In this document: piece by piece, positions 9,229 to 24,000 of the stretch
Layout of the letters: each line of letters opens with the position of its first letter
How positions within the stretch are numbered: position 1 is the first letter of the stretch
NCBI GenBank assembly: GCA_025210525.1
Contig: JAOARP010000029.1
Location: 108,739-132,738 of the forward strand
Reading direction: 5' to 3'
Length of the DNA stretch: 24,000 bases
Source: Marinisporobacter sp.
GTDB taxonomy: Bacteria > Bacillota > Clostridia > Peptostreptococcales > Thermotaleaceae
The notes under the pieces: generated by a model
What the model was told of the DNA's origin: nothing
Seen by the model: the letters and a program-made list of their open reading frames with translations, nothing else
Databases searched by the model: none
Position numbers and translations under genes: made by a program

Positions 9229-10332
9229 TCAGGTAATAAATTTTTCCTCAAAATCAGCATATTCATAAGAAATCTTACGGAATTCTTCTTGAACATTCAT
9301 AAAAGCATCAATAATATCTGGGTCAAAGTGCTGCCCCTTTCCTTCAAGTATAATTTGAACAGCTTTTTCATGGGAATATGCTTGCTTATAAACTCGCTTG
9401 CTGATAAGTGCATCATACACATCTGCCACAGCCATAAGTCTTCCTGACAGAAAAATTTCTTCTCCTACCAGCCTATCAGGATAGCCGGTTCCATCCCATT
9501 TTTCATGATGAGAACGTGCTAGCTCCATTGCGCATTTCAAAAAAGAACTATCACCAAGATTCTTAGATGCTCTTGCTAAGGAATCATGTCCAAAAATGGT
9601 ATGCTTTTTCATTTCTTCAAACTCTTCATCTGTTAGTTTTCCGTTCTTCAATAAAATGTTATCTCTTATTCCTATTTTACCAATATCATGAAGAGGCGCT
9701 GATTTATATAGAAGCTCTATGGTTTCATTATTGAAAAACTCCTTGAACTTTGGATTTTTTTTAAGTTCCTCTGCCAATATTTTTATATAATTCTTTGTAC
9801 GCTTTATATGATCACCAGTTTCAGGATCTCGATATTCTGCCAGGCAAGCCAACGCTTCAATAGTTGCTTCCTGAGTAAGAGAAATTTCTTTTGTTCTTTC
9901 TATTACTTTTTTCTCAAGAATTTCATTTTGCTTTGATAATTCATATTTGGCAAGCTTCAAAGACAGGTGAGTAAAAACTCTAGCTTTCACCTCAAGAATT
10001 TCAAAAGGCTTGGTTACATAGTCCACTGCTCCTAGTTCAAATCCTTTTGTCTTGCTGTTTATATCTGTCATTGCGGTTAAAAATATAATAGGAATTTTTG
10101 AGGTAGCTTTATTCTCTTTAATGCGGCGGCATACTTCATATCCATCCATACCAGGCATCATGATATCCAATAAAATAATATCCGGTACTTCCATTTCTAT
10201 ATTTTCAAGGGCAGATTCTCCATCCATCGCAACGGATATCTCGTAATCGTCACCAAGTGCTTCTACAAGTATATCCACATTAACTTCCGTATCATCTACA
10301 ATTAGCACCGTACATTCTGAAAGCTTTTTCAT
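9229..10332 (-). CDS. Response regulator with HD-GYP domain (predicted c-di-GMP phosphodiesterase, RpfG-like)
   Basis: 367 aa. REC domain (VLIVDD, LLDIMMPGMDG), then LHDIGKIGI (HD) and HHEKWDGTGYP (GYP). ATG 10332 lies 1 nt after the kinase stop (10334-10336). Confidence 0.9.
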   Translation of the reverse strand: MKKLSECTVLIVDDTEVNVDILVEALGDDYEISVAMDGESALENIEMEVPDIILLDIMMPGMDGYEVCRRIKENKATSKIPIIFLTAMTDINSKTKGFELGAVDYVTKPFEILEVKARVFTHLSLKLAKYELSKQNEILEKKVIERTKEISLTQEATIEALACLAEYRDPETGDHIKRTKNYIKILAEELKKNPKFKEFFNNETIELLYKSAPLHDIGKIGIRDNILLKNGKLTDEEFEEMKKHTIFGHDSLARASKNLGDSSFLKCAMELARSHHEKWDGTGYPDRLVGEEIFLSGRLMAVADVYDALISKRVYKQAYSHEKAVQIILEGKGQHFDPDIIDAFMNVQEEFRKISYEYADFEEKFIT

Positions 10333-10333
10333 G

Positions 10334-13060
10334 TCATGTCAACTCCTTCAAGCTTGTTATCAATGTTTCCAGTATATACATTGCTTCTTTAAATTTATAT
10401 TTTGAAATAAGTTTTACAATATCTGCAGCTTGCCTTCGAAATTGAAGGGGCCATATTAATTTTTTATATTCTTCCATGATTTTAGAACATTTTTTAGGTT
10501 TTCGTGTTTTTACAAAGGGCTTAAGATCATTCAAAACTTTTAATAATTCCTCCTGTGTGGAAACAGTCCCCATTAACTGCGGCACATTCTCTTCTTCCGG
10601 AAGTGCATTCTCCAAATACTCTATCATTTTTGCAAGTATTACACTTGTTTCATCAATCATGATCTTTAGCGCATCCATTGAAGCCTGCTCCCTGATAGCT
10701 GTTTCCAGGTCAGCAGCCTTTTTTTGAATTGCAATAGCACCAATGCTGCCAGATACGCTCTTTAAAGTATGGACAAGCCGTTCTGCTGAGGACCAGTCTC
10801 CTTCTGAAAGCATCTGATCTATTTGTACAAAAATATATTTTTGTCCTGATATGTATTTTCTAAGTAAATTAATGTAGGATTTCTTTTTACCAAGTACTCT
10901 TTTTAATCCCATTTCTGCATCCAAACCGGGTATATTCAGTTCCAATCCATTTTCTACTGAATTCATTGACATCTGCTGCACTTGTTTCTCCTTTGATTGT
11001 TTAGTGGGAATCCATTTCAGAAGAGTTGAAAACAATTGCTCGGGATCAATGGGTTTTGCAATATGGTCATTCATTCCTGCTTCCGCACACTTCTCCTTAT
11101 CACCTACCATAGCATTTGCCGTCATTGCAATAATAGGTAGTGATACATACTCTATTTTTTTCCTAATTTCCTTTGTAGCCGTTACTCCGTCCATGACAGG
11201 CATCTGCATATCCATAAGCACAATATCATAGAACTCTTCATTAACTTTCTTAACGGCAATTTCTCCATTTTCAGCAATATCAATGAGAAAGCCGTAATCC
11301 TCCAGTAGTTCCACCGCAACCTGCTGATTCAGTTCATTATCTTCCACCAGTAATATACGTGCACCGCAGATAGATGCAAGATATTTTTCCGCAATATTAA
11401 TAGGACAATATTCCTCTTCTTCTCTTTCTTCAGTTTCACTTTCTCCTAATATTCGAAGTACAGAGTCAAGAAGCACTATGGAATTTACCGGTTTAACGAG
11501 AACCATCTCAATACCCGCATCTTCTGCTTCCTGGAAAACTTCCTCACGACCATATGCCGTTACTATGACATAGTGAGGTTTTGTTTTCAATGTCATTTTA
11601 TCTATTCTTTTTATGGTTTCTATACCCTTCAATCCTGGCATTTGCAAATCCATAAATACAATATCAAAAGGATCATTTCCATTATTAACTTTACCAATAA
11701 CCTGTAAAGCCTGTTCCCCTGATGCTGCTTCCATTACGTGTAAATTCATAGCCCTAAGCATTTCTGAAAGTATAATTCTTGCATGAAAATTATCATCCAC
11801 TACAAGCACCTTTCCATTCACTAAATTTGTAGAAGGTAGATAAGCTTTTTCCGTTGCTTTACTTATACCTAATTTAGCAGTAAACCAGAAGGTGCTTCCT
11901 TTACCTATTTCTGTTTTAACGCCTACATCCCCATCCATCAAATTAGCCAATTTTTTAGAAATAGCAAGGCCCAATCCAGTACCACCATATTTTCTTGTTA
12001 TAGAAGTATCACACTGCTGAAAAGATTTGAACAGCTTATTTTTCTGTTCTTCTGTCATCCCAATTCCCGTATCCTGAACTTCAAACTTCACCAAACATTC
12101 ATTTTCCCATTCAGTTTTTTTACGAATTCCTACAATGATTTCTCCTTTATCTGTAAATTTAACAGCATTATTTGTGTAGTTTATTAGAATTTGACCTAAC
12201 CGCAGTGGATCTCCACATAGGTCATTCGGTAATTCAGGATCAAGGTCAAAAATTAACTCAAGCCCCTTAGAGGAGCACTTTTCACCAATAACAGTTAGCA
12301 GGTTATCCAGTACTTGATCCAGTTTGAAATCTATTTTTTCAATTTCCAGTTTGCCTGATTCTATTTTTGAAAAATCCAATATATCGTTAATAATTCCCAA
12401 TAGATGCTGACTGGATTTCTGTATTTTATCAATGTAATCCTTTTGCTTTGGGTTTAAGTCTGTTTTTTGAATTAAGTAAGTCATTCCCATAATAGCATTC
12501 ATAGGTGTTCGAATTTCATGGCTCATGTTAGCAAGAAAATCTACCTTAGCTTGTGCAGCTACTTCTGAAATATTTTTAGCCTTTTTTAACTCTTCTGCAT
12601 AAACAATTAGTTCATCATTCTTTTTTTTAAGTTCATTCATCAACTCAGCTCTTGAGGGTAGTAAGAGTTCTCTTCTTATTTTGTCAATAAAATCATCGGT
12701 AATAAAAAAACTTGAATCACTTAAATTAGAATATGCCTCCACAGTTAATGAACCATCTTTTGAATTTTCCATATAGAATTTATCAAAAAACTCATTTCCA
12801 AAGAAATAATTTCCGCTATTTGGCATTCGACTAAATCTGAACATAAGTGCTTTCAGGTTATTGATCTCAGTTATGAAAGTTGAAATTAATATTTCATTAT
12901 CACCCCGGTAGCCTATTCTGCACATTTCTGATATAGCAATTTCAATTCTTGTAGCCTTAATTTCGGAATAATTGAACTTCTTAACAAGTCGCTGAATTTT
13001 TTTTCTAGCTTCTATTCTAGAATCTGTGTTGGTAACTTTAATAACACCTAATTCAATCAT
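10334..13060 (-). CDS. Cytoplasmic hybrid histidine kinase: N-terminal RsbT-like degenerate domain, coiled coil, HisKA, HATPase_c, REC, REC, Hpt
   Basis: 908 aa with no TM segment. H-box [14 protein letters not shown]; G-boxes QDTGIGM and [16 protein letters not shown]1 reads [14 protein letters not shown] and REC2 reads [18 protein letters not shown]. Hpt motif [12 protein letters not shown]. Confidence 0.9.
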
Positions 13061-13084: not shown

Positions 13085-13672
13085 CTACATTGAATATTTT
13101 AATACAATGCAAGATGCATCATCGTTTTTTTTCCAAAAATACTCCAATATCCTGGCGGCGATACTCCCGGCATTTTCTCTTAATAATCCCACATAATTAA
13201 TCAGATCAAAATGTTCCTTAATACCATCAGAATGCATAAGTATCGTATCTCCAGGATAAAGCTTCATACGATGCTTTTGAGGTTTTCTCATCCTGTAGCC
13301 TATTGTTCCATCCTTGGGAATAAGTCTGGTTGGCTTTGTTCCAAAAATTCTCACAGTAATATTTCCAATTCCAACATAGGTTAATTCCCCTGTCAAAATA
13401 TCTAAATGACACACCGCCGCCACAGCTCCCCTTGTTCCTTTTAAATGTTCATGGAGACCATTGATCATGTCTGTAAGGTCCATCCGATAATTATTTTTCA
13501 GATATTTCTTAGCTGAAAGAGCTATTTTTCTTGCTTCTGAACCATGTCCAAGTACATCAATCAATGCAAGAAAACATTGATGATCATATTCCTGGATTAC
13601 TCCTATATCACCGCATTCCGATTCATCTCCCAGCAGAGCTCGAAAAGTCATTCCTAAATCAATATTTCGCAT
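13085..13672 (-). CDS. rsbX: RsbX-like PP2C/SpoIIE-family phosphatase
   Basis: About 195 aa, close to the 199 aa of B. subtilis RsbX. Motifs seen: ECGD, ALIDVLGHGSEA, YVGIGN, MHSDGI. ATG 13672 forms a TAATG overlap with the upstream stop; the track's GTG 13684 is also possible. Confidence 0.7.
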   Translation of the reverse strand: MRNIDLGMTFRALLGDESECGDIGVIQEYDHQCFLALIDVLGHGSEARKIALSAKKYLKNNYRMDLTDMINGLHEHLKGTRGAVAAVCHLDILTGELTYVGIGNITVRIFGTKPTRLIPKDGTIGYRMRKPQKHRMKLYPGDTILMHSDGIKEHFDLINYVGLLRENAGSIAARILEYFWKKNDDASCIVLKYSM

Positions 13673-14133
13673 TATTTCATCCACCTTCGCACAAGCACTC
13701 GAGTTCCCCTTCCCATTAAAGATTCCATATAAAATTCGTCCATAATTCTTTTTACACTGGGTAAACCAAGTCCTAAACTATTTGGTAATGAGCTATATTG
13801 TTCTTGCATAGCAAGTTCAATATCTCTTATTCCAGGGCCATTATCACTTGCATATATTTCAAGTCCTTTTCGTCCATCTTTTAGATTTTTAATAATACTA
13901 ATAATCATCTCACCTTTTTTAGCATAACGTATAATATTTGTCGATAATTCAGAAGCAGCTGTGGCAATCATCACTTCATCAGTACTCATAAAGCCCGCTT
14001 TTACTGACATTTCCCTAGCAATAAATATCACATGTCCATTATCATAATCCTCTACCAACTTAACCAATACTGATTCTAGTATATTTACATTCTTACCTTG
14101 GAAAAGCGTGAATTCCCCTTCTAATTTATCCAT
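13672..14133 (-). CDS. rsbT: RsbT-like anti-sigma-regulatory-factor-type Ser/Thr kinase (GHKL)
   Basis: 153 aa. N-box ASELSTNIIRYA, G1 SDNGPGI, G2 LGLGLPSVKRIMDEF. TAATG overlap with the rsbS-like stop. Confidence 0.8.
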   Translation of the reverse strand: MDKLEGEFTLFQGKNVNILESVLVKLVEDYDNGHVIFIAREMSVKAGFMSTDEVMIATAASELSTNIIRYAKKGEMIISIIKNLKDGRKGLEIYASDNGPGIRDIELAMQEQYSSLPNSLGLGLPSVKRIMDEFYMESLMGRGTRVLVRRWMK

Positions 14134-14528
14134 TACTTATTACCTCTACTCTTATTCAATTGAGCTCTGGAAATGATCTTAAGACCTTGCTCTAAATTCA
14201 TTGCCGTTTTTATACAGCTTACATCTACATTTAAATCCAATAAAGCAGACACTACACCCGGTCTCAGACCAATCCATACAACCATTACTCCCATTAGTGA
14301 AATTGCCTTTGAAGCTTTTCTTAGTGCTTCAAAACTATATGAATCCAATACAGATACTATACTTAAATCAAATATTGTCCCTTTGATATAAGAATTATTT
14401 GCTTTCATTAGTACCCTGCTGCTGCCAATTTCTATATCCTCATCTGTCATTTCATTTGGTAATGTTACTATAAGGCATCTCTGTACTACCGTAATAGATG
14501 TATTTAAACTACTATTCAAATCACTCAT
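14133..14528 (-). CDS. rsbS: RsbS-like single-STAS-domain protein
   Basis: 131 aa. IFDLSIVSVLDSYSFEAL..LMGVMVVWIGLRPGVVSALLDLNV..LEQGL lines up with B. subtilis RsbS around the phosphorylatable Ser (the D-S dipeptide is conserved). Confidence 0.75.
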   Translation of the reverse strand: MSDLNSSLNTSITVVQRCLIVTLPNEMTDEDIEIGSSRVLMKANNSYIKGTIFDLSIVSVLDSYSFEALRKASKAISLMGVMVVWIGLRPGVVSALLDLNVDVSCIKTAMNLEQGLKIISRAQLNKSRGNK

Positions 14529-14543
14529 ATCGATACTTCCTTA

Positions 14544-15353
14544 CTATTCATTTTTCTTTTTTACTTCTAGATTTAATATTGTAAAAGCTTCTGCAAGTGC
14601 ATCACTTAAAGTAGACTTTGTGTTTATATTATCCATCTCAATACCTAACTGAATAATGGTTTGTGCTACTGCAGGACTTATCCCTGAAAGTATACATTCA
14701 CACCCCATAAGCTTTGTAGCCTTTGTTATTTTAATCATATGGTTTGCTACTGCTGTATCTACAGCAGCCACACCATGAATGTCCATAATGATAACTTTTG
14801 AATAGGTTTCGATAATTTTATTCAACATGGTATCCATCATATGCTGAGCTCTCATTGAATCCACAATCCCTACCACAGGGAGAACCAATACTCCATCCCA
14901 CAGCTTTATAGTCGGTGTTGCCATTTCACGTATGGTGCGGTTTTGTTCCCTTACCCTTTCTTCATATTGAGCTCGTTCCGTCATATCAACAATAAACTCA
15001 AGCCCTCCAATTACAACATTGTTTTCATTCTTTAAAGGTACTGCAAAATATTCAAAGGGTGTATTCACACCCCCTATTATCGCTTCATTTCGAGAAGAAC
15101 ACATTTTTCCGCTTTCAAGGGTTCTCTTCATACGGCATTCATCCGTATTGCAGTGCAGGGATTTTAAGAACTCACAGCACTTTTTTCCTACAATTTCTTT
15201 CCATTTTTTATTGCTAATCTTTTGGAAAGCATGATTCATATAGATTATCCTTAATTCTTTATCTACTGCCATTACCGGAGTAGGGATTTGATCAAGAATT
15301 TGCATTTTAGTCATAGTAGTTGCTTCTTGAAAATTTTCAGTGATCTTTTTCAT
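14544..15353 (-). CDS. rsbR: RsbR-like stressosome sensor: Cys-rich PAS domain + C-terminal STAS
   Basis: The STAS region IMDIHGVAAVDTAVANH..LMGCECILSGISPAVAQTIIQLGI retains both RsbR-type Thr positions (VDT, AQT). The N-terminal PAS-like fold carries C60 C61 H68 C69 C74 C86 (track numbering). ATG 15353 with SD AGGAGG is preferred over the track's TTG 15356. Confidence 0.75.
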   Translation of the reverse strand: MKKITENFQEATTMTKMQILDQIPTPVMAVDKELRIIYMNHAFQKISNKKWKEIVGKKCCEFLKSLHCNTDECRMKRTLESGKMCSSRNEAIIGGVNTPFEYFAVPLKNENNVVIGGLEFIVDMTERAQYEERVREQNRTIREMATPTIKLWDGVLVLPVVGIVDSMRAQHMMDTMLNKIIETYSKVIIMDIHGVAAVDTAVANHMIKITKATKLMGCECILSGISPAVAQTIIQLGIEMDNINTKSTLSDALAEAFTILNLEVKKKNE

Positions 15354-15750
15354 CAATTTCCTCCTTGATAATTTCTTTTTATATATTATTTAATTAGGCC
15401 ACATGTAGAATATATAGTTTCACGTAAATATAGTTTTTAAATTTAAACCTTATATTTTCAACATTATTTCTAAATATATTATATTATCTTTGTACAATTA
15501 TAGAACTTATGGCATTGTTGAAATTTTATAATAATAAAAAATGAAAAATACTTTGGTGATATATAGTAACAGTCATCAATTAACTATTGATAATATTGTT
15601 TAGTTACTAAAAACCTTTCCCAAGAATTTATATTCTTAAGAAAGATAAGATTAAACTTTTTAAGCATTTAAAAAGTTTAGTATGAATGCATAAATATTTT
15701 TCAATTATTATAAATTTATTCAGTTATTATCCTTAAATTGTAATTATAGT

Positions 15751-18034: not shown

Positions 18035-18850
18035 TTATTTTTGATATTTCTCCCTTTCGATGAAAGCATTAACCTCTTCAGCCCAAGAATACTGAGCCAT
18101 ATATTCGCCATGATAAAGCTTTCTGCCCTCTACACTGTTTTCTACCCATTTAAAGTAGTCGCACTGGATACATTCTAAGCTTGACAGTCCAATCTGAGCT
18201 CTTGCACTATATATTATTTTTCCACATCCAAGCTGGTTCAACACATCCTGCAAGTCTTTTTTCAGCATCCTATAGTACGAATCATGACCATCCTCCTCCC
18301 ATAGTGTTGCAATTACTTCCTTTGAAGTACATCTTGCGCCCTTTCTGTGAACAAGATATGCCAGAAGCTCCTTTGTCTTTTCAAATTTAAATTTTGCAGG
18401 TTTTCCATCTATACGTATCTCAAAATTTCCAAAGCAGGTTATCTGTATCCTCTGTTCCTCTTCCCCTACTGGATTCTCCTGCGATGAATATCTAAGATTT
18501 TCAAGTGCATGACGTATCTGCTCCACATTTGCTGGCTTCATGATATAGTCACTGGCATCTAGTCTAAATGCCTCTCCCATATGATCCGAATAACCAGTCA
18601 CAAATATGAAGTTGGTCTTAGGGTACAATTTCTTAAGCTTGTTGGCGAACTCTATTCCATTTAATCCCGGCATTTGTATATCAATAAAACACACATGAAA
18701 CTGCTGCTGCTTGGCAAGCTCCAGTGACTGAACAGGATTATTTGCCGTTACAACTTCTGCTTTTTCATCAGCTTCACATATTAATGCTGCAAGATACTCT
18801 GCTGCAATTATCTCATCGTCCAATACTAAGTATTTCACGTCGTTCACCAC
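18035..18850 (-). CDS. Response regulator: REC + SARP/OmpR-like winged helix with a short BTAD-like tail
   Basis: REC domain (YLVLDDE, FIDIQMPGLNG, KP). The C-terminus reads ITCFGNFEIRIDGKPAKFKFEKTKELLAYLVHRKG..IATLWEE..YHGEYMAQYSWAEE. The start is ambiguous (GTG at 18850, 18847 or 18838). Confidence 0.75.
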   Translation of the reverse strand: MVNDVKYLVLDDEIIAAEYLAALICEADEKAEVVTANNPVQSLELAKQQQFHVCFIDIQMPGLNGIEFANKLKKLYPKTNFIFVTGYSDHMGEAFRLDASDYIMKPANVEQIRHALENLRYSSQENPVGEEEQRIQITCFGNFEIRIDGKPAKFKFEKTKELLAYLVHRKGARCTSKEVIATLWEEDGHDSYYRMLKKDLQDVLNQLGCGKIIYSARAQIGLSSLECIQCDYFKWVENSVEGRKLYHGEYMAQYSWAEEVNAFIEREKYQK

Positions 18851-20117
18851 TCTCCAGTCTTACATTTTTTCTTTCTCCCGGAATAATAATTTTTACAGTT
18901 GTTCCAATTCCTATAAAACTTATAATTTCCATTTCTGCCTTAACCATACTTTTTAGCCGTTCATTTACATTATGTATGCCAACATGAGGTTTTCCATCAT
19001 TTAATGCCTTGTCTATTTCAAAGCCTATTCCATTATCTGCAATTGTTATGATGTGATCCCTCCCCTGCTTTTCCGTAGAAATCTTTATTGTTCCCCCCTC
19101 AAGCTTCTTGCATATTCCGTGCTTGACTGCATTTTCCACAATTGGCTGCAACGTCAGGGTTGGCATATTAAAATCATCTGATTTTATATCATATTCTACC
19201 TTTACCCGATCCCCAAATCTCAGTTTTTCTATATCAAGATAAATATTTGTATGCTCCAGCTCCTGAGAAAAAGGATGTGTGTCATTTTCGCCCATGCTAT
19301 ACATATTTTCCCTAAGATATCTGGAAAATTTTATAGTAGTTTCCTCTGCAAGCTTCGGATTCGCTCGGCAAAGTGCAGTGATCGTATTTAATGTATTGTA
19401 TAAAAAGTGAGGCTGTATCTGTGAAAGCATCAATGATACTCTTTGCTCCCTCAGCTTTATTTCCTTTTCCTCATTTACCTGCTGTGATATATATACATGT
19501 ATTACAAGGTAATAAAACAAAAATGCTACAGCATAAGTTTCGTTCAATATTCCTGCTCGTACCCCTATTGATTCCATAATATTTGCAGTCATCAGCCAGG
19601 CTATACAGAAGAAGGCTCCAAGAGGATTTACATCTGTTTTTCTGTAAAATTCCATATTCAATATAAAAAGGAATATAACCCAATAAACCCAGTCCGTAAC
19701 AATAAAGGTATATCCCACAAGTCCAAGTTCAAGGCTTCCATCCGACCCAAAATAAAATACATTATTTTTAAAAAATGCACCGCAGTAAAAAAGGAAATTC
19801 ACTGTGGCGGGAACATAGATTAATTTATTTTTTGGTTTCACCATATTTATGACTGTAGCCATAACCAAAGGTTTTAGCGAGTAATAGGTTATACCTGTTA
19901 CGATGAGCGGCAATCCCACTATAGCTTGCTCCTTAAGATAATTCATATAGAACTCCGCTATAGACAGAATCAAAAGCAGTGTCATATTTATAACCATTCG
20001 TTTTTTTATAAATATATCTACTGCTGATTTCATGGAAACAACAAAATATATACCCACTACCATTGCAATAAGTATATAGTTTTCAATAAGATAATTTTGC
20101 AAATATGTCTCTTTCAC
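18813..20117 (-). CDS. LytS/YehU-type sensor histidine kinase (His_kinase PF06580-like) with a multi-TM N-terminus
   Basis: 434 aa with about 6 TM helices. H-region QIQPHFLYNTLNTI, N-box PIVENAVKHG, G-box DNGIGF. GTG start at 20117 with SD GAGGTG. Confidence 0.8.
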   Translation of the reverse strand: MKETYLQNYLIENYILIAMVVGIYFVVSMKSAVDIFIKKRMVINMTLLLILSIAEFYMNYLKEQAIVGLPLIVTGITYYSLKPLVMATVINMVKPKNKLIYVPATVNFLFYCGAFFKNNVFYFGSDGSLELGLVGYTFIVTDWVYWVIFLFILNMEFYRKTDVNPLGAFFCIAWLMTANIMESIGVRAGILNETYAVAFLFYYLVIHVYISQQVNEEKEIKLREQRVSLMLSQIQPHFLYNTLNTITALCRANPKLAEETTIKFSRYLRENMYSMGENDTHPFSQELEHTNIYLDIEKLRFGDRVKVEYDIKSDDFNMPTLTLQPIVENAVKHGICKKLEGGTIKISTEKQGRDHIITIADNGIGFEIDKALNDGKPHVGIHNVNERLKSMVKAEMEIISFIGIGTTVKIIIPGERKNVRLESGERREILSIGR

Positions 20118-20342
20118 TTACTTCACCTCATAATATTCAAAAACACTTTAAACTGCCTAGCTTCATTTCAAATCAAGTGAATTTTAGTAACATTACCACC
20201 TTTTCGCAAAATAGATATGTCATTTTTTTACTTCTATATAAGCATACAATAACTACCACTAGGAATTTTATTTTTACTTGTAATATTACTATATCATGTT
20301 TACTTAATTAATCAATATGCACATGTAAAGTCTGTATCTGAT

Positions 20343-20430
20343 GTTATTGGACTTTGACTTGTCGTGCAGTTTTATATTTTTCGTTCTGTAATATCTTCTT
20401 CAGAGTTTCTGATCTCCACTTTAGACTAGC
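20343..20430 (-). pseudogene. Frameshifted fragment resembling the Recombinase domain of a large serine recombinase
   Basis: Minus-strand frame X reads ..ASLKWRSETLEEDITERKI*. The adjacent frame reads ..LWKKILQNEKYKTARQVKVQ* (stop at 20343-20345). Removing 1 nt at the CC at 20400-20401 joins them into KWRSETLKKILQNEKYK, which matches W-x-S-x-T-h-x-x-I-L-x-N-E-K-Y. There is no start codon. Confidence 0.3.
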
Positions 20431-20502
20431 GCTACTATCAAAGGATAAAAAATAAGGCTTCCAGCAGTCGGTGATTGTTACCGAAAGTCTGGAAACCTCT
20501 GA

Positions 20503-20561
20503 TTTAAGTCTTTCCCTGTTGCTGTCGGTAAACCGACTGGATTGATACCCACGTGAAAAAA
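20503..20561 (+). repeat. Direct repeat copy 1, a detached L,D-transpeptidase codon fragment
   Basis: tttaagtctttccctgttgcTgtcggtaaaccgactgGAttgatacccacgtGaaaaaaa. In frame this reads FKSFPVAVGKPTGLIPT*, with a TGA directly upstream, so it is not translated as part of a gene. Confidence 0.8.
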
Positions 20562-20590
20562 AGACACTATTTCTGAAATGAATGTCTTTA
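20556..20590 (-). terminator. AT-rich hairpin + T7 on the minus strand
   Basis: On the minus strand, AAGACA..TGTCTT with an inner ATTT/AAAT stem is followed by TTTTTTT. The stem is weak. Confidence 0.35.
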
Positions 20591-20621
20591 AAAATTCTAT
20601 TTTACTCTGCCATATTATTTT

Positions 20622-20732
20622 CTAATTTAAAAGTTTTTCAATTTTCTCTTTTGGCAATTCTATTACCTCTGCAATCTTTTCAAGAGTAAATCCTAATGAG
20701 ATTAATTTTTTTGTTACCTCATATGTATAATT
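20622..20732 (-). pseudogene. C-terminal helix-turn-helix tail fragment of the kind found at the end of Rpn/YhgA-like PD-(D/E)xK transposases
   Basis: An open frame without a start codon reads NYTYEVTKKLISLGFTLEKIAEVIELPKEKIEKLLN*. It is bounded upstream by TAA. Confidence 0.3.
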
Positions 20733-20754
20733 TTACATTTATTCTAAATATTAA

Positions 20755-21507
20755 CTACATGTTTATTGGTTGATTTACTATCGCTTCTATATCTGTTCCA
20801 AAATCAGATTTTTTTCTCTTATACCCCTTTGTAAATGCATCCACATTCTTTATTATATTCTCCTTATCATACACAAAGAAAAATAGATAATCAGTTTTAT
20901 AATGAAATGCATCTGCCCCCATTTCCTCAGTAAGATTCCTTTCAGTCATACTTTTTCTTGTGCATTTAACTTCTATGACTACATCATATTCATTACCAAT
21001 TTTAATTTTACTTAAATCTTCTTTTTTTATTGTTCCCTTTCCATGTATTTTTTCTTGATACATTACTTGAATATGCTTGTAAAAATTTTTTAGTATTCTC
21101 CTTACTATAATTAATGCAACATTTCTTTCTAAATAATAATCATTACCATTATCTGATTCTTTTGTACCACTATATTTATCGTTATCTATTTCTTCTTTTA
21201 ATATTTGAAGAAACTTTATACCACTTTCAATACCTTCACTTAACATATTTTGGCTCTCTATTTTGGAAAATTTGTTGATATTTCGTTCTACATTAAATAA
21301 AAATTCCTTGGTCTTTTGATTATTTTTAAATATTTGCCTTAATATAGCTTCTGTGCCTCTTACCCATTGATTATAACTTTTTTCCATTTCTGCAATTGAA
21401 GAATTTTTATTCAAAAACCCAATACTATTATTCCCTAACTTTATTTGTGTATCAATTCTTTCAATACTTGTCTTTCTGCATTCATTTGCCAAAATATCAC
21501 TTTTCAT
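20755..21507 (-). CDS. Hypothetical effector-like protein: helical N-terminal domain + C-terminal PD-(D/E)xK-like region
   Basis: About 250 aa from ATG 21507, which forms an ATGA overlap with the upstream stop (the track's start at 21525 is also possible). The C-terminus reads KKEDLSKIKIGNEYDVVIEVKCTRK..TDYLFFFVYDKENII, giving acidic residues, then E-V-K in a beta-strand-like context. I recognised no named family. Confidence 0.55.
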   Translation of the reverse strand: MKSDILANECRKTSIERIDTQIKLGNNSIGFLNKNSSIAEMEKSYNQWVRGTEAILRQIFKNNQKTKEFLFNVERNINKFSKIESQNMLSEGIESGIKFLQILKEEIDNDKYSGTKESDNGNDYYLERNVALIIVRRILKNFYKHIQVMYQEKIHGKGTIKKEDLSKIKIGNEYDVVIEVKCTRKSMTERNLTEEMGADAFHYKTDYLFFFVYDKENIIKNVDAFTKGYKRKKSDFGTDIEAIVNQPINM

Positions 21508-22706
21508 TTTCGATTTACTCCCCATCTAATATAGAATAGAAATAATGGTTCAAGAATATAAATCTGTTCATCTTTCCATTCAAACACTTGATATATCGCT
21601 TCACTATTAGTCATAATATCTTGAATTGCTTGCAATGTTTTTTTTAGTTTATTTTTATCAAGTTTATCCTCTATATTCACCATTAAATGATCTACTCTAT
21701 TTTTCAATTCATCAATTGTTATGCTTATTAACGGTGGATCTGATGCAATAGCTTTCAAAATAATTCCGTAAACATCTAGATCGTGTTCCCCATCAATTTT
21801 ATATGTTTTTCTTTTTTGTCCTCTTGTAGATGGTCCAGATTTAAGTTTTTTTACAACTTCTTTATAAGGTAAATTTATGGTAGTAAATTTATAACTTTTA
21901 TCCAGTAATGTCATATCTAATTCATTAACCTCATCTATATTAGATATTAATGATAAATTTAAGCATATAGATTGCATCAGTTGAGGAGATGTAAGGCTTT
22001 CTATTGCAATTTTTTCTGCAAAAATATCTGTAATCTCTATTCCCAACTTATCAAAACCAGTTATTGCTATTTTTTTTAGTTCTTCCTTTTTCCACGGTTC
22101 TATATTTATCAAATTTAGTCTTCCACTTAAATCAGCATTCTTTCTAATTGCATCATCTGCCCTGTGAGGTAATGAAATTACTATTGCTTTAAGTTCTTTT
22201 CTAATAGCATCTTTTAATTGGTATGCAATATCAAATTGTAATTCTTCTGATGCATAGTGAAAATCATCTAAAACGAGCACCAAATTATTATTCTTGAAAT
22301 AATCAATAATTGTATCTTTATTTGCTAAATATCTATCCCTTGAAGCTATACTTTTTATTCTCATATTTTCTTCATTAATACTTTCTTTTGAAGTATTCAC
22401 TTTAGAATATTCACCTTCAACTACTAATCCCAGTTTTGTTGCTATAACTTCCCAAAAATTTGTTGAATTTTTAAAATCACTTCCTGTTAAAGATATCATA
22501 TTATCTAATCCTATAACTTTTTCACATAAAACTGTCTTCCCTGTTTTAGAGGGTCCGATAATCGAGGTAAGATAACCCGGAGTGTTTAAAGCTTGTTTTA
22601 ATCTAAACTCATAAGTAAACATTAATTCAGAAGATATTCTGGAAATATAAGTATATTCTGGAAATGCACCTGGTTTAAATACATCATATGATTGAAGTTT
22701 TTTCAT
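21504..22706 (-). CDS. P-loop NTPase (AAA+/ORC-like architecture) with a probable winged-helix C-terminus
   Basis: About 400 aa. Walker A is IIGPSKTGKTVL, Walker B is LVLVLDDFH, and VISLPHR is sensor-like. ATG 22706 has SD GGGGTGAGGA (the track starts at GTG 22715). Confidence 0.7.
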   Translation of the reverse strand: MKKLQSYDVFKPGAFPEYTYISRISSELMFTYEFRLKQALNTPGYLTSIIGPSKTGKTVLCEKVIGLDNMISLTGSDFKNSTNFWEVIATKLGLVVEGEYSKVNTSKESINEENMRIKSIASRDRYLANKDTIIDYFKNNNLVLVLDDFHYASEELQFDIAYQLKDAIRKELKAIVISLPHRADDAIRKNADLSGRLNLINIEPWKKEELKKIAITGFDKLGIEITDIFAEKIAIESLTSPQLMQSICLNLSLISNIDEVNELDMTLLDKSYKFTTINLPYKEVVKKLKSGPSTRGQKRKTYKIDGEHDLDVYGIILKAIASDPPLISITIDELKNRVDHLMVNIEDKLDKNKLKKTLQAIQDIMTNSEAIYQVFEWKDEQIYILEPLFLFYIRWGVNRK

Positions 22707-22919
22707 AATCCTCACCCCTTTTATAGCTTAAATCTTTTATATTTTATATTATATACTAAACTAATATTTTTTGATATGACTCATTAGTATTTTACACCTT
22801 TTTATAGCTTTTTATACTTATATACATTTTCAAACAACTTTATATACCCTTTATCACCAATGACGTTTCTTATCCTTATATACTTCATTTTTCTTATCTC
22901 TACTTCAATTTTTTAGAAA

Positions 22920-22952
22920 CCTTCTTTTTCTTAAAATTTAAGAAAAAGAAGG
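22920..22952. other. Perfect 14-bp inverted repeat CCTTCTTTTTCTTA-AAATT-TAAGAAAAAGAAGG
   Basis: Read directly from the sequence. It lies about 215 bp upstream of the NTPase start, between that gene and the truncated ldt ORF. On the minus strand it is followed by TTTCT, so it is at best a weak terminator and may be an operator or insulator. Confidence 0.4.
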
Positions 22953-23132
22953 CTGTATTCTATCCTATCTAAGAAAAATGTGATTTGGAGTCTTCCTATT
23001 TATCAAAAAAACCACCGTTATTTACAGTATGCTTTCACCTCACCAAATCCTAAATTTCTATATTTTATCCTCTCTAAAATGATTTTTCTTGCATAATATG
23101 TAATAATTATAAAATAATCACGAGGTGATCAA

Positions 23133-23276
23133 GTGTATTCTAATTTGTATATGCCAATTAATTATAGTATCGCCATTAATACCTATTCTCGAATCCTTAC
23201 TTTATTTCGTAACGGACAGTGGTTTAAGTCTTTCCCTGTTGCAGTCGGTAAACCGACTGAGTTGATACCCACGTAA
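23133..23276 (+). pseudogene. Truncated N-terminal fragment of a small YkuD-type L,D-transpeptidase gene
   Basis: SD GAGGTGA plus GTG 23133 gives (M)YSNLYMPINYSIAINTYSRILTLFRNGQWFKSFPVAVGKPTELIPT*. The y-I-x-I..r-L-x-L-f-x-nG..k-x-fPVAVGKP pattern matches the start of the YkuD domain. The ORF stops before the catalytic His/Cys region. Confidence 0.6.
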
Positions 23277-23281
23277 AAAAA
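23223..23281 (+). repeat. Direct repeat copy 2, inside the truncated ldt ORF
   Basis: Matches 20503-20561 at 55 of 59 positions. The mismatches are at 23243, 23260, 23261 and 23275. Confidence 0.8.
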
Positions 23282-23302
23282 CTACCTCTTTAATGGAGAT
23301 AG
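23275..23302 (-). terminator. Rho-independent terminator after the TPR gene (copy 2 of the repeated hairpin module)
   Basis: On the minus strand, CTATCTC-CATTAAA-GAGGTAG is followed by T7. The 26-nt core ctacctctttaatggagatagctttc differs at 2 positions from 15760-15785. Confidence 0.55.
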
Positions 23303-23403
23303 CTTTCGTGTTTGGTAATATATGCGATGGTTCACATCTTTTTCGTGGACTATCTGAAAATACCATGTTATGTAAATGTCGTCGAAATCATAGTATCACC
23401 AAC

Positions 23404-24000
23404 TTAAGATTTCTTTTTATTTTTTCGAACTACTTTGACACCAACATCATATACGCCTAATTGTTTATCAATTAATTCAAATCTTTTATCCTTTTTCAAA
23501 ACTTCAAAAAGTTCTTCCTCTTTAAATGTTAAATACCCTTTTGCTATAATAAAATTGCAATATATATCTGATATTGTTATTAACTTTCTTTTATTTTTCA
23601 GAAATTCATAACACATATCTAATATATCTTCTGTAAATCTAATTACTTCAGGTTTTTCAATCCATTCAAAAGAATTTTCGTCCTTATCCAACGCGAACAA
23701 AGCATCTAGAATAGAGTATTGTACATCTATAAAGTTAGGGTGTTTTATATATAATTTTGATAAAAAGTCAATTGCCTTTTCATACTCACTATTTAATACA
23801 TAGGCATCTCCCAATCTCCATTGGATATATGGATCATTTTTGTTTTGTTTTGCAGCTTTTTCTCTATATTTAACCAATCCATTCCAATCCTTTTTATTAA
23901 AGTAGTCATAATCTACTTCCCAACTTTCATATTCACTAAATTTCTCATGTTCTTTATTTATCCTATAATCTTCAAGTTGAACAACTTTTTTATCTTTCAT
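23404..24000 (-). CDS. Hypothetical TPR-like repeat protein
   Basis: 198 aa. WRLGDAYVLNSEYEKAIDFLSKLYIKHPN fits a TPR unit. The ATG sits exactly at the window edge, so the true start could lie beyond the window. Confidence 0.45.
   Translation of the reverse strand: MKDKKVVQLEDYRINKEHEKFSEYESWEVDYDYFNKKDWNGLVKYREKAAKQNKNDPYIQWRLGDAYVLNSEYEKAIDFLSKLYIKHPNFIDVQYSILDALFALDKDENSFEWIEKPEVIRFTEDILDMCYEFLKNKRKLITISDIYCNFIIAKGYLTFKEEELFEVLKKDKRFELIDKQLGVYDVGVKVVRKNKKKS

Follow-up and report, generated by a model that had tools for sequence, protein, structure and literature searches.

A Bacillota gene pair predicted to encode an ORC/Cdc6-like ATPase and an AgaN-related nuclease, with an internally deleted nuclease allele in Marinisporobacter sp.

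Two overlapping open reading frames, termed here gene A and gene B, are present on the minus strand of the window, i.e. the whole 24,000 nt stretch of Marinisporobacter sp. DNA that was analyzed. The question raised by this locus is whether the two genes form a phage defence module, as the initial annotation suggested, and what state this copy is in. The reading reached here, held with moderate confidence, is that A and B represent a self-contained mobile module of Bacillota, that its function is most likely anti-phage or anti-plasmid defence with A switching on B, and that the copy in the window has decayed.

Gene A and gene B and their predicted products

The features of the two genes are:
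21504–22706, minus strand: gene A, an intact 400 aa open reading frame for a predicted ORC/Cdc6-like AAA+ ATPase
22533–22556, minus strand: Walker A motif GPSKTGKT, A residues 51–58 (from the sequence)
22257–22280, minus strand: Walker B motif VLVLDDFH, A residues 143–150 (from the sequence)
22326–22418, minus strand: long beta-hairpin insertion between Walker A and Walker B, A residues 97–127 (AF2 model)
21555–21773, minus strand: C-terminal winged-helix domain of A, residues 312–384 (AF2 topology and Foldseek)
20755–21507, minus strand: gene B, a 250 aa open reading frame for a predicted helical domain plus restriction endonuclease (REase) fold, an internally deleted allele of a 289 aa gene
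21504–21507, minus strand: ATGA, where the TGA stop of A and the ATG start of B overlap (from the sequence)

Gene A starts with ATG at 22706 and ends with TGA at 21506–21504. The sequence GGGGTGAGG, a G-rich Shine-Dalgarno-like stretch, lies ahead of its start codon. The A protein is 100% identical to P0001. Both Walker motifs of the NTPase of about 400 aa that had been described are present, and they are highly conserved: Walker A residues G51, S53, K54, G56, K57 and T58 and Walker B residues L144, D147, D148, F149 and H150 are invariant in 57 A homologues. The match of A to Pfam AAA_22 (ORC1/DEAH-type AAA+) is at 26.6 bits, where the gathering cut-off is 27 (E-value 8e-6). Many gene A homologues carry a precomputed PF13401 match.

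The AF2 model of A (pLDDT 86.8, pTM 0.81) together with Foldseek displays an AAA+ alpha/beta core, a helical lid and a C-terminal winged helix. The winged helix is modeled as H312–322, E328–330, H331–341, H351–366, E375–378 and E381–384. Top Foldseek matches in the PDB are Cdc6 (1fnn, E-value 1e-8), Orc1/Cdc6 (2qby, 2.5e-7) and ORC2 (1w5t, 4.3e-7), all with probability 1.00 and TM scores of 0.41–0.46; PAB2304 (2qen, TM 0.50/0.56) is also among them. The alignments to Cdc6/Orc1 are full length. A is thus predicted from the structural model to be an ORC/Cdc6-like AAA+ ATPase with a C-terminal winged helix, in agreement with the layout proposed in the initial annotation.

Although A shares the AAA+ core, lid and winged helix with Orc1/Cdc6 initiators and with the PAB2304-type "archaeal ATPase", it is only 13–14% identical to them and has in addition the long beta-hairpin that separates its two Walker motifs. 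In the AF2 model this insertion consists of strands at positions 97–111 and 114–127 with a pLDDT of about 58–60, and conservation in the A alignment is lowest here. Unlike the archaeal and eukaryotic Orc1/Cdc6 proteins, A is bacterial, is found on mobile elements and is paired with a nuclease.

Gene B starts with ATG at 21507 and ends with TAG at 20757–20755. A Shine-Dalgarno-like GGGGAG is located 10 nt ahead of its start codon. Translational coupling of the two genes through ATGA had been proposed; both minus-strand open reading frames and the overlap are real. The B protein of the window is identical to the NCBI MAG protein N4A62_07420 of Marinisporobacter sp. The PD-(D/E)xK character that had been read into its C-terminal half is borne out by a match to Pfam PF18742 (REase_DpnII-MboI) of 67.9 bits, above the cut-off of 27 (E-value 9.6e-19). 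This match is split in two stretches. The intact allele (P0122) matches the same model in one stretch, at positions 2–140 of 150, with 125.7 bits.

The AF2 model of an intact B homologue (pLDDT 89.4) displays an alpha-beta-beta-beta-alpha-beta core, i.e. H173–184, E191–197, E204–210, E215–221, H228–241 and E246–252. A profile of B matches the solved EcbAgaN chain with an E-value of 2.8e-10, and the motifs NEY.VQ, R.D and EVK are aligned. The PADLOC model Aga_Helical-REase matches intact B at 4e-16. Foldseek of B against the PDB gave no significant match (best E-value 0.05), and the weak matches are to REase-fold proteins (Cas4, AF1548, Can2 and cap-snatching endonucleases). For the fold of B the sequence profile is more informative than Foldseek.

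On these profile matches, B is predicted to consist of a helical domain and a PF18742 restriction-endonuclease-fold domain of the PD-(D/E)xK family, and its closest characterised relative is AgaN, which serves long-B Argonaute systems as the DNase effector in abortive infection. As an enzyme AgaN is a nonspecific DNase that depends on Mn; activity is lost in the D298A and E309A/K311A mutants, and cells are killed only after its activation (PMC10620215). In its autoinhibited state AgaN is a dimer under the control of the N-domain, and the sensor assembles it into the active octamer (PMC13535254).

The layout of B is similar to that of AgaN of the long-B BPAN systems (EcbAgaN), with a helical domain at the N-terminus that a linker joins to a C-terminal PD-(D/E)xK domain. 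The two share the NEY.VQ, R.D and EVK motifs, and B, like AgaN, is encoded beside its putative sensor. B is shorter, however, about 280 aa compared with 390 aa, and the likeness demonstrated is that of the nuclease domain. The partner also differs. In BPAN it is an Argonaute, while the gene upstream of B encodes an AAA+ ATPase and no protein of the window matches an Argonaute family.

The deletion in the window allele of gene B

The initial annotation treated B as an intact nuclease-like effector, but the gene has sustained an internal loss. A contig from another sample (L081), 99.65% identical to the window by blastn, carries an intact B of 289 aa. Compared with this sequence, the window B shows a 117 nt in-frame deletion (39 codons) between two 14 nt repeats and has thereby lost the catalytic Asp together with two strands of the core. 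The stretch IGNEYDVVIEVKC, which had been read as a nuclease motif, is not native and represents the junction of the deletion. The features of this region are:
20980–20993, minus strand: deletion junction, with the single surviving copy of the 14 nt repeat ATGAATATGATGTA (blastn and junction sequences)
20965–20973, minus strand: residual E-V-K of the D...EVK nuclease motif, with its partner Asp deleted (sequence and alignment)

The 39 codons missing at the junction are QRMLYSLIRPIFPSARMEISDDAGYNSIRYDILIDEYDV. Residues 177–215, absent from the window B, encompass most of helix 1 and strands 1–2, thus the complete alpha-beta-beta-beta-alpha-beta catalytic core is not present. The catalytic triad D...(D/E)-x-K is also incomplete. 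The E-V-K remains and aligns with E309-V310-K311 of EcbAgaN (PMC13535254), but D207, which aligns with D298 of EcbAgaN, is deleted; in this the window allele differs from AgaN itself. Residues N172, E173, Y174, Q177, E194, R205 and D207 are kept in 136 of 137 B homologues, the window protein being the sole one without this group, and E218 and K220 are kept in all 137.

The same deletion is found in an independent Logan assembly (L082); it has been seen in assemblies of one sample only, i.e. the MAG and Logan SRR21418666. The deletion is microhomology-mediated. Since helix 1, strands 1–2 and the catalytic Asp are lost, the B protein of the window is almost certainly inactive and this copy of the cassette is probably decaying or dead, while A is still intact. 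Mutating the E-V-K of the window allele would therefore amount to testing an already dead protein, and this allele is unsuited to cloning. Annotation pipelines would label the window B an intact "PD-(D/E)XK nuclease" despite its lost catalytic core, a reminder that in-frame microdeletions can silently inactivate defence genes.

Surroundings and pairing of A and B

The flanks of the cassette contain the following features, none of which is assigned to a strand:
22920–22952: perfect palindrome with 15–16 bp arms, a terminator-like hairpin located some 215 nt ahead of gene A (repeat search)
23220–23281: upstream copy of a 62 nt direct repeat (repeat search)
20500–20561: downstream copy of the 62 nt direct repeat, at the edge of the low-GC segment (repeat search)

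The hairpin that had been reported upstream of the pair is present, it is perfect, and it is the sole terminator-like site in 20100–23500. Flanking direct repeats are likewise present, with the qualification that their length is 62 nt, at 92% identity, and not 59 bp as first given; two matches were obtained in none of 100 shuffles. Elsewhere the 62 nt repeat is found only in two Logan contigs of the same organism, and a comparison with metagenome contigs gave no exact match. In the sister sample the contigs are broken within the upstream copy. For a reading of the repeats as attL and attR, no empty-site comparator was found. No Rfam family was detected in the whole window at gathering thresholds or in 20100–23500 at E ≤ 1, and no tRNA was found by ARAGORN, thus the repeats and the hairpin represent neither a known RNA nor a tRNA-derived att site. 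Reading the 62 nt repeat as a YkuD L,D-transpeptidase fragment (FPVAVGKPT...) is at best tentative, as there is no Pfam match and a BLASTP comparison with the YkuD protein encoded in the window reached an E-value of only 0.34.

The cassette has a GC content of 0.26–0.29 and is located at the edge of a low-GC island. The island also holds a Stk2-like kinase gene (5.6e-52) and a HEPN gene, just past the end of the window and near the cassette. Pseudogenised mobile-element debris had been described around the pair, but this could not be substantiated: blastx of both flanks against the open reading frames of 80 related loci gave no significant similarity to a transposase or recombinase (best E-value 0.84), and ordinary chromosomal genes lie left of position 20117.

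The pair is also not an orphan, as it had been called. The A family comprises 512 clusters (50% identity) with E ≤ 1e-30, and the nuclease domain of B is homologous to AgaN. Pairing was surveyed in 66 species-level loci found by searching for A. A full B directly follows A in 49 of these core loci and a broken B in 13, i.e. B, whole or broken, is found after A in 62 of 66. The adjacency and joint conservation of the two genes, proposed initially as a check, are thus observed. The distance from the A stop codon to the B start codon is mostly –16 to +25 nt, with many pairs overlapping by 4–16 nt.

No third conserved gene is found beside A and B in the homologous loci. A 198 aa TPR-like gene upstream was considered as a third component and set aside, as it has no homologue beside A-B in any other locus. 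In Tumebacillus (L039) a 391 aa open reading frame is located downstream of A; it has no Pfam or PADLOC family and would be only a candidate for a swapped effector. Standalone A genes are distant relatives only (33–41% identity) and are adjoined by type I restriction-modification (R-M) genes. Given these distant homologues without B, A may also function independently.

A-B pairs occur in the Bacillus cereus group, on Clostridioides difficile phage-plasmids, on Clostridium plasmids and in gut Lachnospiraceae.

The surroundings of A-B elsewhere were surveyed qualitatively. Pairs are present in 25 plasmid records and one C. difficile phage record, and in B. cereus CI within a large serine recombinase element. 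The intact pair of this strain, B. cereus biovar anthracis CI, is located around 5,154,800–5,156,900 of CP001746. A-B lies beside CRISPR, R-M, MADS and PARIS-like genes; neighbours include Cas1/Cas4, mad2/mad3, AriA/AbiLi, type I, III and IIG R-M and LeoA/LeoBC genes. MazEF and AbiEii are among the neighbours as well, and Fic and Panacea-domain genes are near A-B on a C. estertheticum plasmid. Housekeeping genes, e.g. flagellar, polysaccharide and GNAT genes, make up many of the neighbours. The plasmids, the phage-plasmid and the variable, mobile-element or defence surroundings agree, within this qualitative survey, with the expectation that homologues are found in variable or defence islands.

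Possible function of the pair and other explanations

No description of the A-B pair, nor an experimental test of any member, was found in the literature that was searched. In keeping with the initial statement that no named defence system is matched, neither protein maps cleanly onto a named system in PADLOC v2 (2023). The pair is most likely a variant of the ATPase-plus-nuclease defence theme that is unnamed as far as PADLOC v2 shows.

The nearest entry on the side of A is PDC-S59, a single-gene phage-defence candidate of PADLOC defined as embedded in defence systems (Payne et al. 2024 preprint); the term "S59" is absent from the supplements of the PADLOC candidate paper. A is a homologous AAA+ ATPase: the window protein matches PDC-S59 with an E-value of 6e-21, and family members reach 2.6e-27. 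The window A gives 73 bits, mostly at residues 123–395, and family members give 76–94 bits. Since these scores are only 73–94 bits against a 428-position model, the comparison indicates that A belongs to a related family and is a distant relative of PDC-S59, not a member. Unlike the single-gene PDC-S59, A is paired with B in the 62 core loci noted above. On the side of B, the PF18742 effector family is shared with variants of Detocs, where it is an alternative effector and a swappable output. The sensor of Detocs, however, is a two-component phosphorelay, and its REase is fused to a receiver domain, while that of B is fused to a helical domain.

Observations on the pair itself extend to its folds and motifs, to the strict pairing of its genes and to their mobile or defence surroundings. 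Activation of B by A, and the nature of the trigger, are proposed by analogy with AgaN, where pAgo is the sensor. In this model A would be sensor and switch, binding invader-associated DNA or another trigger and oligomerising in an ATP-dependent manner. B would be a DNase of the AgaN type that is autoinhibited; its helical N-domain would be regulatory, and its restriction-endonuclease-fold C-domain would carry the D...EVK motif. Recruitment or assembly of B by A would end the autoinhibition, and active B would degrade DNA, resulting in abortive infection or destruction of the invader.

A McrBC-like, ATP-dependent (type IV-like) restriction is an unlikely but serious alternative. A would bind foreign or modified DNA by its winged helix, oligomerise and position B to cut this DNA directly, with no suicide of the host. 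The gene order is that of mcrB-mcrC, an AAA+ NTPase gene followed by an overlapping PD-(D/E)xK nuclease gene, and in both cases the nuclease is presumed active only inside an NTPase-nuclease complex. The winged helix of A is of the DNA-binding type, PF18742 is named for true restriction enzymes, and the neighbourhoods of the pair are rich in R-M genes. However A is of the ORC/Cdc6 clade with its winged helix at the C-terminal end, while McrBC has an N-terminal modified-base reader and no modification-reading domain is detectable in A. Neither A nor B matches McrB-type AAA_5 or McrC in Pfam, NCBIfam or PADLOC at E ≤ 1, and AgaN, to which B is closest among characterised proteins, is a nonspecific DNase of abortive infection that acts only when activated.

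Considerably less probable is an addiction or toxin-antitoxin-like module that stabilises plasmids and integrative elements, where the DNase B would act as the toxin, with A as the regulator or antitoxin that depends on ATP, serving the element over the immunity of the host. Carriage on many Clostridium plasmids and a phage-plasmid is in its favor, as are the MazEF, AbiEii, Fic, Panacea-domain and MqsA genes among the neighbours, although many copies are found on chromosomes, next to bona fide defence systems. B is often broken where A is intact (13 of 66 loci and the window), a pattern that toxicity of B would predict; however, A was the query with which the loci were collected, and this asymmetry is biased accordingly. 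A 400 aa AAA+ protein with a winged helix would also be an atypical antitoxin, and toxin-antitoxin and defence functions can coexist.

A remnant of Tn7/Tn5053-like transposition, with A as a TnsC/TniB-type AAA+ regulator and B as a TnsA-like endonuclease, is disfavoured and very improbable. A has a weak Pfam TniB match (E-value 0.019) and weak TnsC profile matches (E-value 0.64), and one homologue is labelled "TniB family" by NCBI, but the structural best matches are Cdc6/ORC and not TnsC, and B matches PF18742/AgaN and not TnsA. No conserved DDE transposase (TnsB/TniA) and no conserved third gene is found beside the pair, and rve is missing from the common neighbour families. Direct repeats do flank the cassette, but at 62 nt they far exceed transposon target duplications in length. 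A housekeeping replication or repair pair of ORC-like initiator and nuclease is scarcely credible, since the resemblance of A to the replication initiators Cdc6/Orc1 and to clamp loaders is outweighed by patchy distribution, variable context, plasmid carriage, a GC content below that of the host and frequent pseudogenisation.

Within the preferred reading of A-B as a mobile defence module, a more specific proposal is put forward tentatively, at just under an even chance. The intact pair would be a distinct, unnamed defence system in which an ORC/Cdc6-like AAA+ ATPase replaces Argonaute as the sensor assembling and activating an AgaN-type DNase. Initiator-like ATPases may have been recruited to recognise invading replicons, and the PDC-S59-like standalone relatives in R-M loci may represent a sister lineage with other outputs.

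If the pair protects against phages or plasmids, it would be a compact two-gene addition to the immune repertoire of Firmicutes. The AgaN-type nuclease would then be a portable effector, driven by Argonaute or by an ORC-like ATPase, and the pair would offer a tractable case for the coupling of one autoinhibited DNase to unrelated sensors.

Layout and surroundings of the cassette

The cassette consists of an ATPase gene (A) followed by a nuclease-family gene (B).

Features of the A–B cassette and its immediate flanks in the window
18813–20117: LytS-type kinase gene
20500–20561 and 23220–23281: direct repeats, 62 nt, 92% identical
21507 (ATG) to 20757–20755 (TAG), minus strand: gene B, 250 aa, with GGGGAG 10 nt upstream
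21504–21507, minus strand: ATGA overlap of the B ATG and the A TGA, three bases in common
22706 (ATG) to 21506–21504 (TGA), minus strand: gene A, 400 aa; GGGGTGAGG precedes the start
A residues 51–58, minus strand: Walker A sequence GPSKTGKT
22326–22418, minus strand: long, variable beta-hairpin, A residues 97–127, between Walker A and Walker B
A residues 143–150, minus strand: Walker B sequence VLVLDDFH
22920–22952: perfect 16+16-nt palindrome, terminator-like
23404–24000, minus strand: gene for a 198-aa protein, directly upstream of the cassette

Both Walker motifs sit where the initial annotation had placed them. The window B protein is identical to NCBI N4A62_07420 (Marinisporobacter sp. 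MAG). The palindrome is the sole terminator-like site within positions 20100–23500, and this hairpin together with A and B is exactly bracketed by the 62-nt repeats. Two such repeat matches were never obtained in shuffled window sequence. The repeats correspond to no RNA family and no tRNA and have no match elsewhere. GC content is about 0.37 at 16–20 kb and 0.26–0.29 from approximately 20.1 kb to the window end. Since the repeats enclose the hairpin, A and B, and the downstream copy lies at the GC step, a putative old att-type or recombination boundary is plausible. The step, at 20100–20500, is sharp and coincides both with this copy of the repeat and with the LytS-type kinase promoter region.

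On the plus strand both repeat copies translate as FKSFPVAVGKPT(E/G)LIPT and then reach a stop at the same codon. This translation is reminiscent of the start of YkuD L,D-transpeptidase domains; it has no significant similarity to the YkuD protein of the window (E 0.34) and no Pfam match. The 198-aa upstream protein displays TPR matches below threshold only and belongs to no PADLOC or PHROG family. It was considered as a part of the unit and rejected, its gene being found beside A–B in no other locus.

The pair had been described as lying among pseudogenised mobile-element debris, which was not borne out when the flanks were checked. The remaining window is ordinary chromosome, with PFK, two-component systems, a stressosome-like cluster, YkuD and an antiporter.

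Other features of the surrounding chromosome
13085–15356, minus strand: stressosome-like cluster (PAS-STAS, STAS, RsbT/RsbW-type HATPase_c_2 kinase, SpoIIE/PP2C phosphatase)
10334–13060: hybrid histidine kinase, 908 aa, with two receiver domains and Hpt, after the stressosome-like cluster
9229–10332: receiver-HD protein, after the hybrid histidine kinase
L096:773–2881, ~1.5–3.6 kb past the right edge of the window: Stk2-like Ser/Thr kinase and HEPN pEK499_p136 protein

L096 is a sister-sample contig with 100% identity to window positions 23235–24000 that runs on past the window end. Its kinase matches PADLOC Stk2 over near full length (E 5.6e-52), and the kinase and HEPN genes are followed by a 336-aa and a 55-aa gene, both of no assigned function. 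The stretch with the kinase and HEPN genes is low in GC throughout, and thus the cassette in this genome is at the edge of a small defense-type island.

Gene A

The A sequence gives a borderline Pfam match to AAA_22 (26.6 bits, cut-off 27) and weak matches to TniB and AAA_16. From 57 homologues, AlphaFold2 yields a confident model (pLDDT 86.8, pTM 0.81). The top PDB match of this model is Pyrobaculum Cdc6 (1fnn, E 1e-8), the other leading matches being Sulfolobus Orc1/Cdc6, Aeropyrum ORC2 and the PAB2304 "archaeal ATPase", with RFC and RuvBL subunits ranking next. The C-terminal residues 312–384 display a winged-helix topology in the model. These structural matches and the modeled winged helix support the ORC/Cdc6-like layout proposed in the initial annotation. 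Conservation is high throughout A apart from the hairpin at residues 97–127, where it is lowest and where model confidence is also low. The hairpin could serve in specificity or sensing. A near-invariant block of the family is SLPHRADDAIRKN.DLSGRL. The family is of moderate size, comprising 512 clusters (50% identity) at E<=1e-30 among 1.84 billion representatives, and nearly all cluster members are 370–460 aa in length.

Gene B and its deletion

With an above-threshold match to Pfam PF18742 (REase_DpnII-MboI), B is placed in a PD-(D/E)xK family, as had been proposed. PF18742 also serves as an alternative effector domain in Detocs. Alignment with 38 homologues shows that 39 residues are missing from the window B only. 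The corresponding 117 nt are retained in L081, a Logan contig of 3,297 bp assembled from another sample (SRR25229948), which is 99.65% identical to window positions 20084–23263. There B is 289 aa, with one residue difference from the window B besides the deletion. The deletion endpoints are two copies of ATGAATATGATGTA, of which a single copy is left in the window at 20980–20993, as is characteristic of slippage or microhomology-mediated deletion. The same deletion is found in L082, an independent assembly of the window's own sample. Retention of the 117 nt in L081, the ATGAATATGATGTA repeats and the shared junction in L082 are evidence that the deletion is real. The stretch "IGNEYDVVIEVKC", which had been quoted in the initial annotation, is the deletion scar.

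The AlphaFold2 model of intact B (pLDDT 89.4) consists of an N-terminal helical bundle and a C-terminal alpha-beta-beta-beta-alpha-beta core. The deleted residues 177–215 comprise most of helix 1 and strands 1 and 2. Among 137 full-length homologues, E173, Y174, Q177, E194, R205 and D207 are absent in the window B alone, N172, E218 and K220 are kept in each of the 137, and one homologue other than the window B has Glu in place of D175.

A search of the B profile against solved proteins yields one match, EcbAgaN (E 2.8e-10), and here the NEY.VQ, R.D and EVK motifs of the two proteins are aligned. The PADLOC Aga_Helical-REase models score 4e-16 with intact B and just 2e-4 with the window allele. 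Long-B Argonaute (BPAN) systems use AgaN as their effector. It is a nonspecific Mn-dependent DNase which kills by genome degradation after Argonaute recognizes its target, and its D298A and E309A/K311A mutants are inactive (PMC10620215). The AgaN dimer is autoinhibited under the control of the N-terminal domain, and the sensor assembles it into an active octamer (PMC13535254). EcbAgaN D298 aligns to D207 of intact B. Because D207 lies within the deleted segment, the window B is, judged from this alignment, almost certainly catalytically dead and probably misfolded. The window copy is therefore a decayed allele in which the effector is inactivated and A is intact.

Pairing, genomic context and interpretation

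A survey of one genome per species gave 80 loci, all in Bacillota, 66 of which are core loci (A at least 44% identical, with sufficient downstream sequence). Full-length B is directly downstream of A on the same strand in 49 of the 66, is fragmented or IS-interrupted in 13 and is lacking in 4. Measured from the A stop, the B start mostly falls at -16 to +25 nt, and no other neighbor gene is conserved beside A–B in the surveyed loci. Ten distant A homologues without B (33–41% identity) are from Negativicutes. B broken in 13 of 66 species besides the window fits a costly or toxic effector, and with the window deletion suggests recurrent nuclease loss, although sampling was anchored on A and the asymmetry is biased accordingly. 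Loci in which B is interrupted by IS/transposase genes or truncated and A is full length are L023, L043 and L063, and also L002, L003, L030, L038 and L060. In Tumebacillus permanentifrigoris (L039:11239–12414) an A homologue of 51% identity is followed 15 nt downstream by a 391-aa ORF replacing B. This ORF is unrelated to B, has no Pfam or PADLOC family, and may encode an alternative partner or be a spurious high-GC reading frame.

Three genes on either side of the pair were scanned at 25 diverse loci (148 proteins). The neighbors include Cas1/Cas4, mad2/mad3, AriA, AbiLi, LeoA/LeoBC, PDC-S01, resolvases and type I, III and IIG R-M components, and also plainly housekeeping genes. The pair is found on 25 plasmid records (13 from Clostridium), among them pCF009-a, where it lies between Fic and Panacea-domain genes, and on a 113-kb Clostridioides phage record and three IMG/VR contigs. 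In Ureibacillus it lies amid IS elements, MazEF and AbiEii, and in Bacillus cereus biovar anthracis CI it adjoins a large serine recombinase. The latter locus (CP001746.1, 5144847–5166049) has the pair at the end of a block containing an RVT_1 reverse transcriptase, a ParA-like ATPase, several unknown genes, the recombinase and an LRAT-family protein. The block probably represents an integrated element that carries the pair as cargo.

Against PDC-S59, one of 145 PADLOC candidates defined by embedding in BREX, DISARM, type I R-M or Hma loci, the score of A is 73 bits; A is related to that family without belonging to it. Distant standalone A relatives (24–34% identity) adjoin type I R-M genes on Glutamicibacter pRE117-1 and Selenomonas pSRC6, and the one on pSRC6 also adjoins MqsA, another AAA ATPase and Fic. 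Combinations of an ATPase with a PD-(D/E)xK effector are a common theme, the effector here is from a known family, and A has this catalogued candidate relative; no name for the specific A–B pairing appears to exist in PADLOC v2 or the searchable literature.

The observed folds, motifs, pairing and context are best explained by A–B being a mobile two-gene defense module. Rival explanations are a McrBC-like restriction system and a plasmid addiction module. A Tn7-like remnant is disfavored since there is no conserved transposase and the A structure is Cdc6-like, not TnsC-like, and a housekeeping function is disfavored by the patchy and mobile distribution. In the defense module, A would be an ORC/Cdc6-like AAA+ sensor and switch controlling B, an AgaN-type DNase. 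From AgaN we infer that A may activate B in response to a trigger, leading to host suicide or direct restriction. The alleles worth testing are the intact one in L081 (the 289-aa protein P0122) or the B. cereus copy, not the decayed one of the window.
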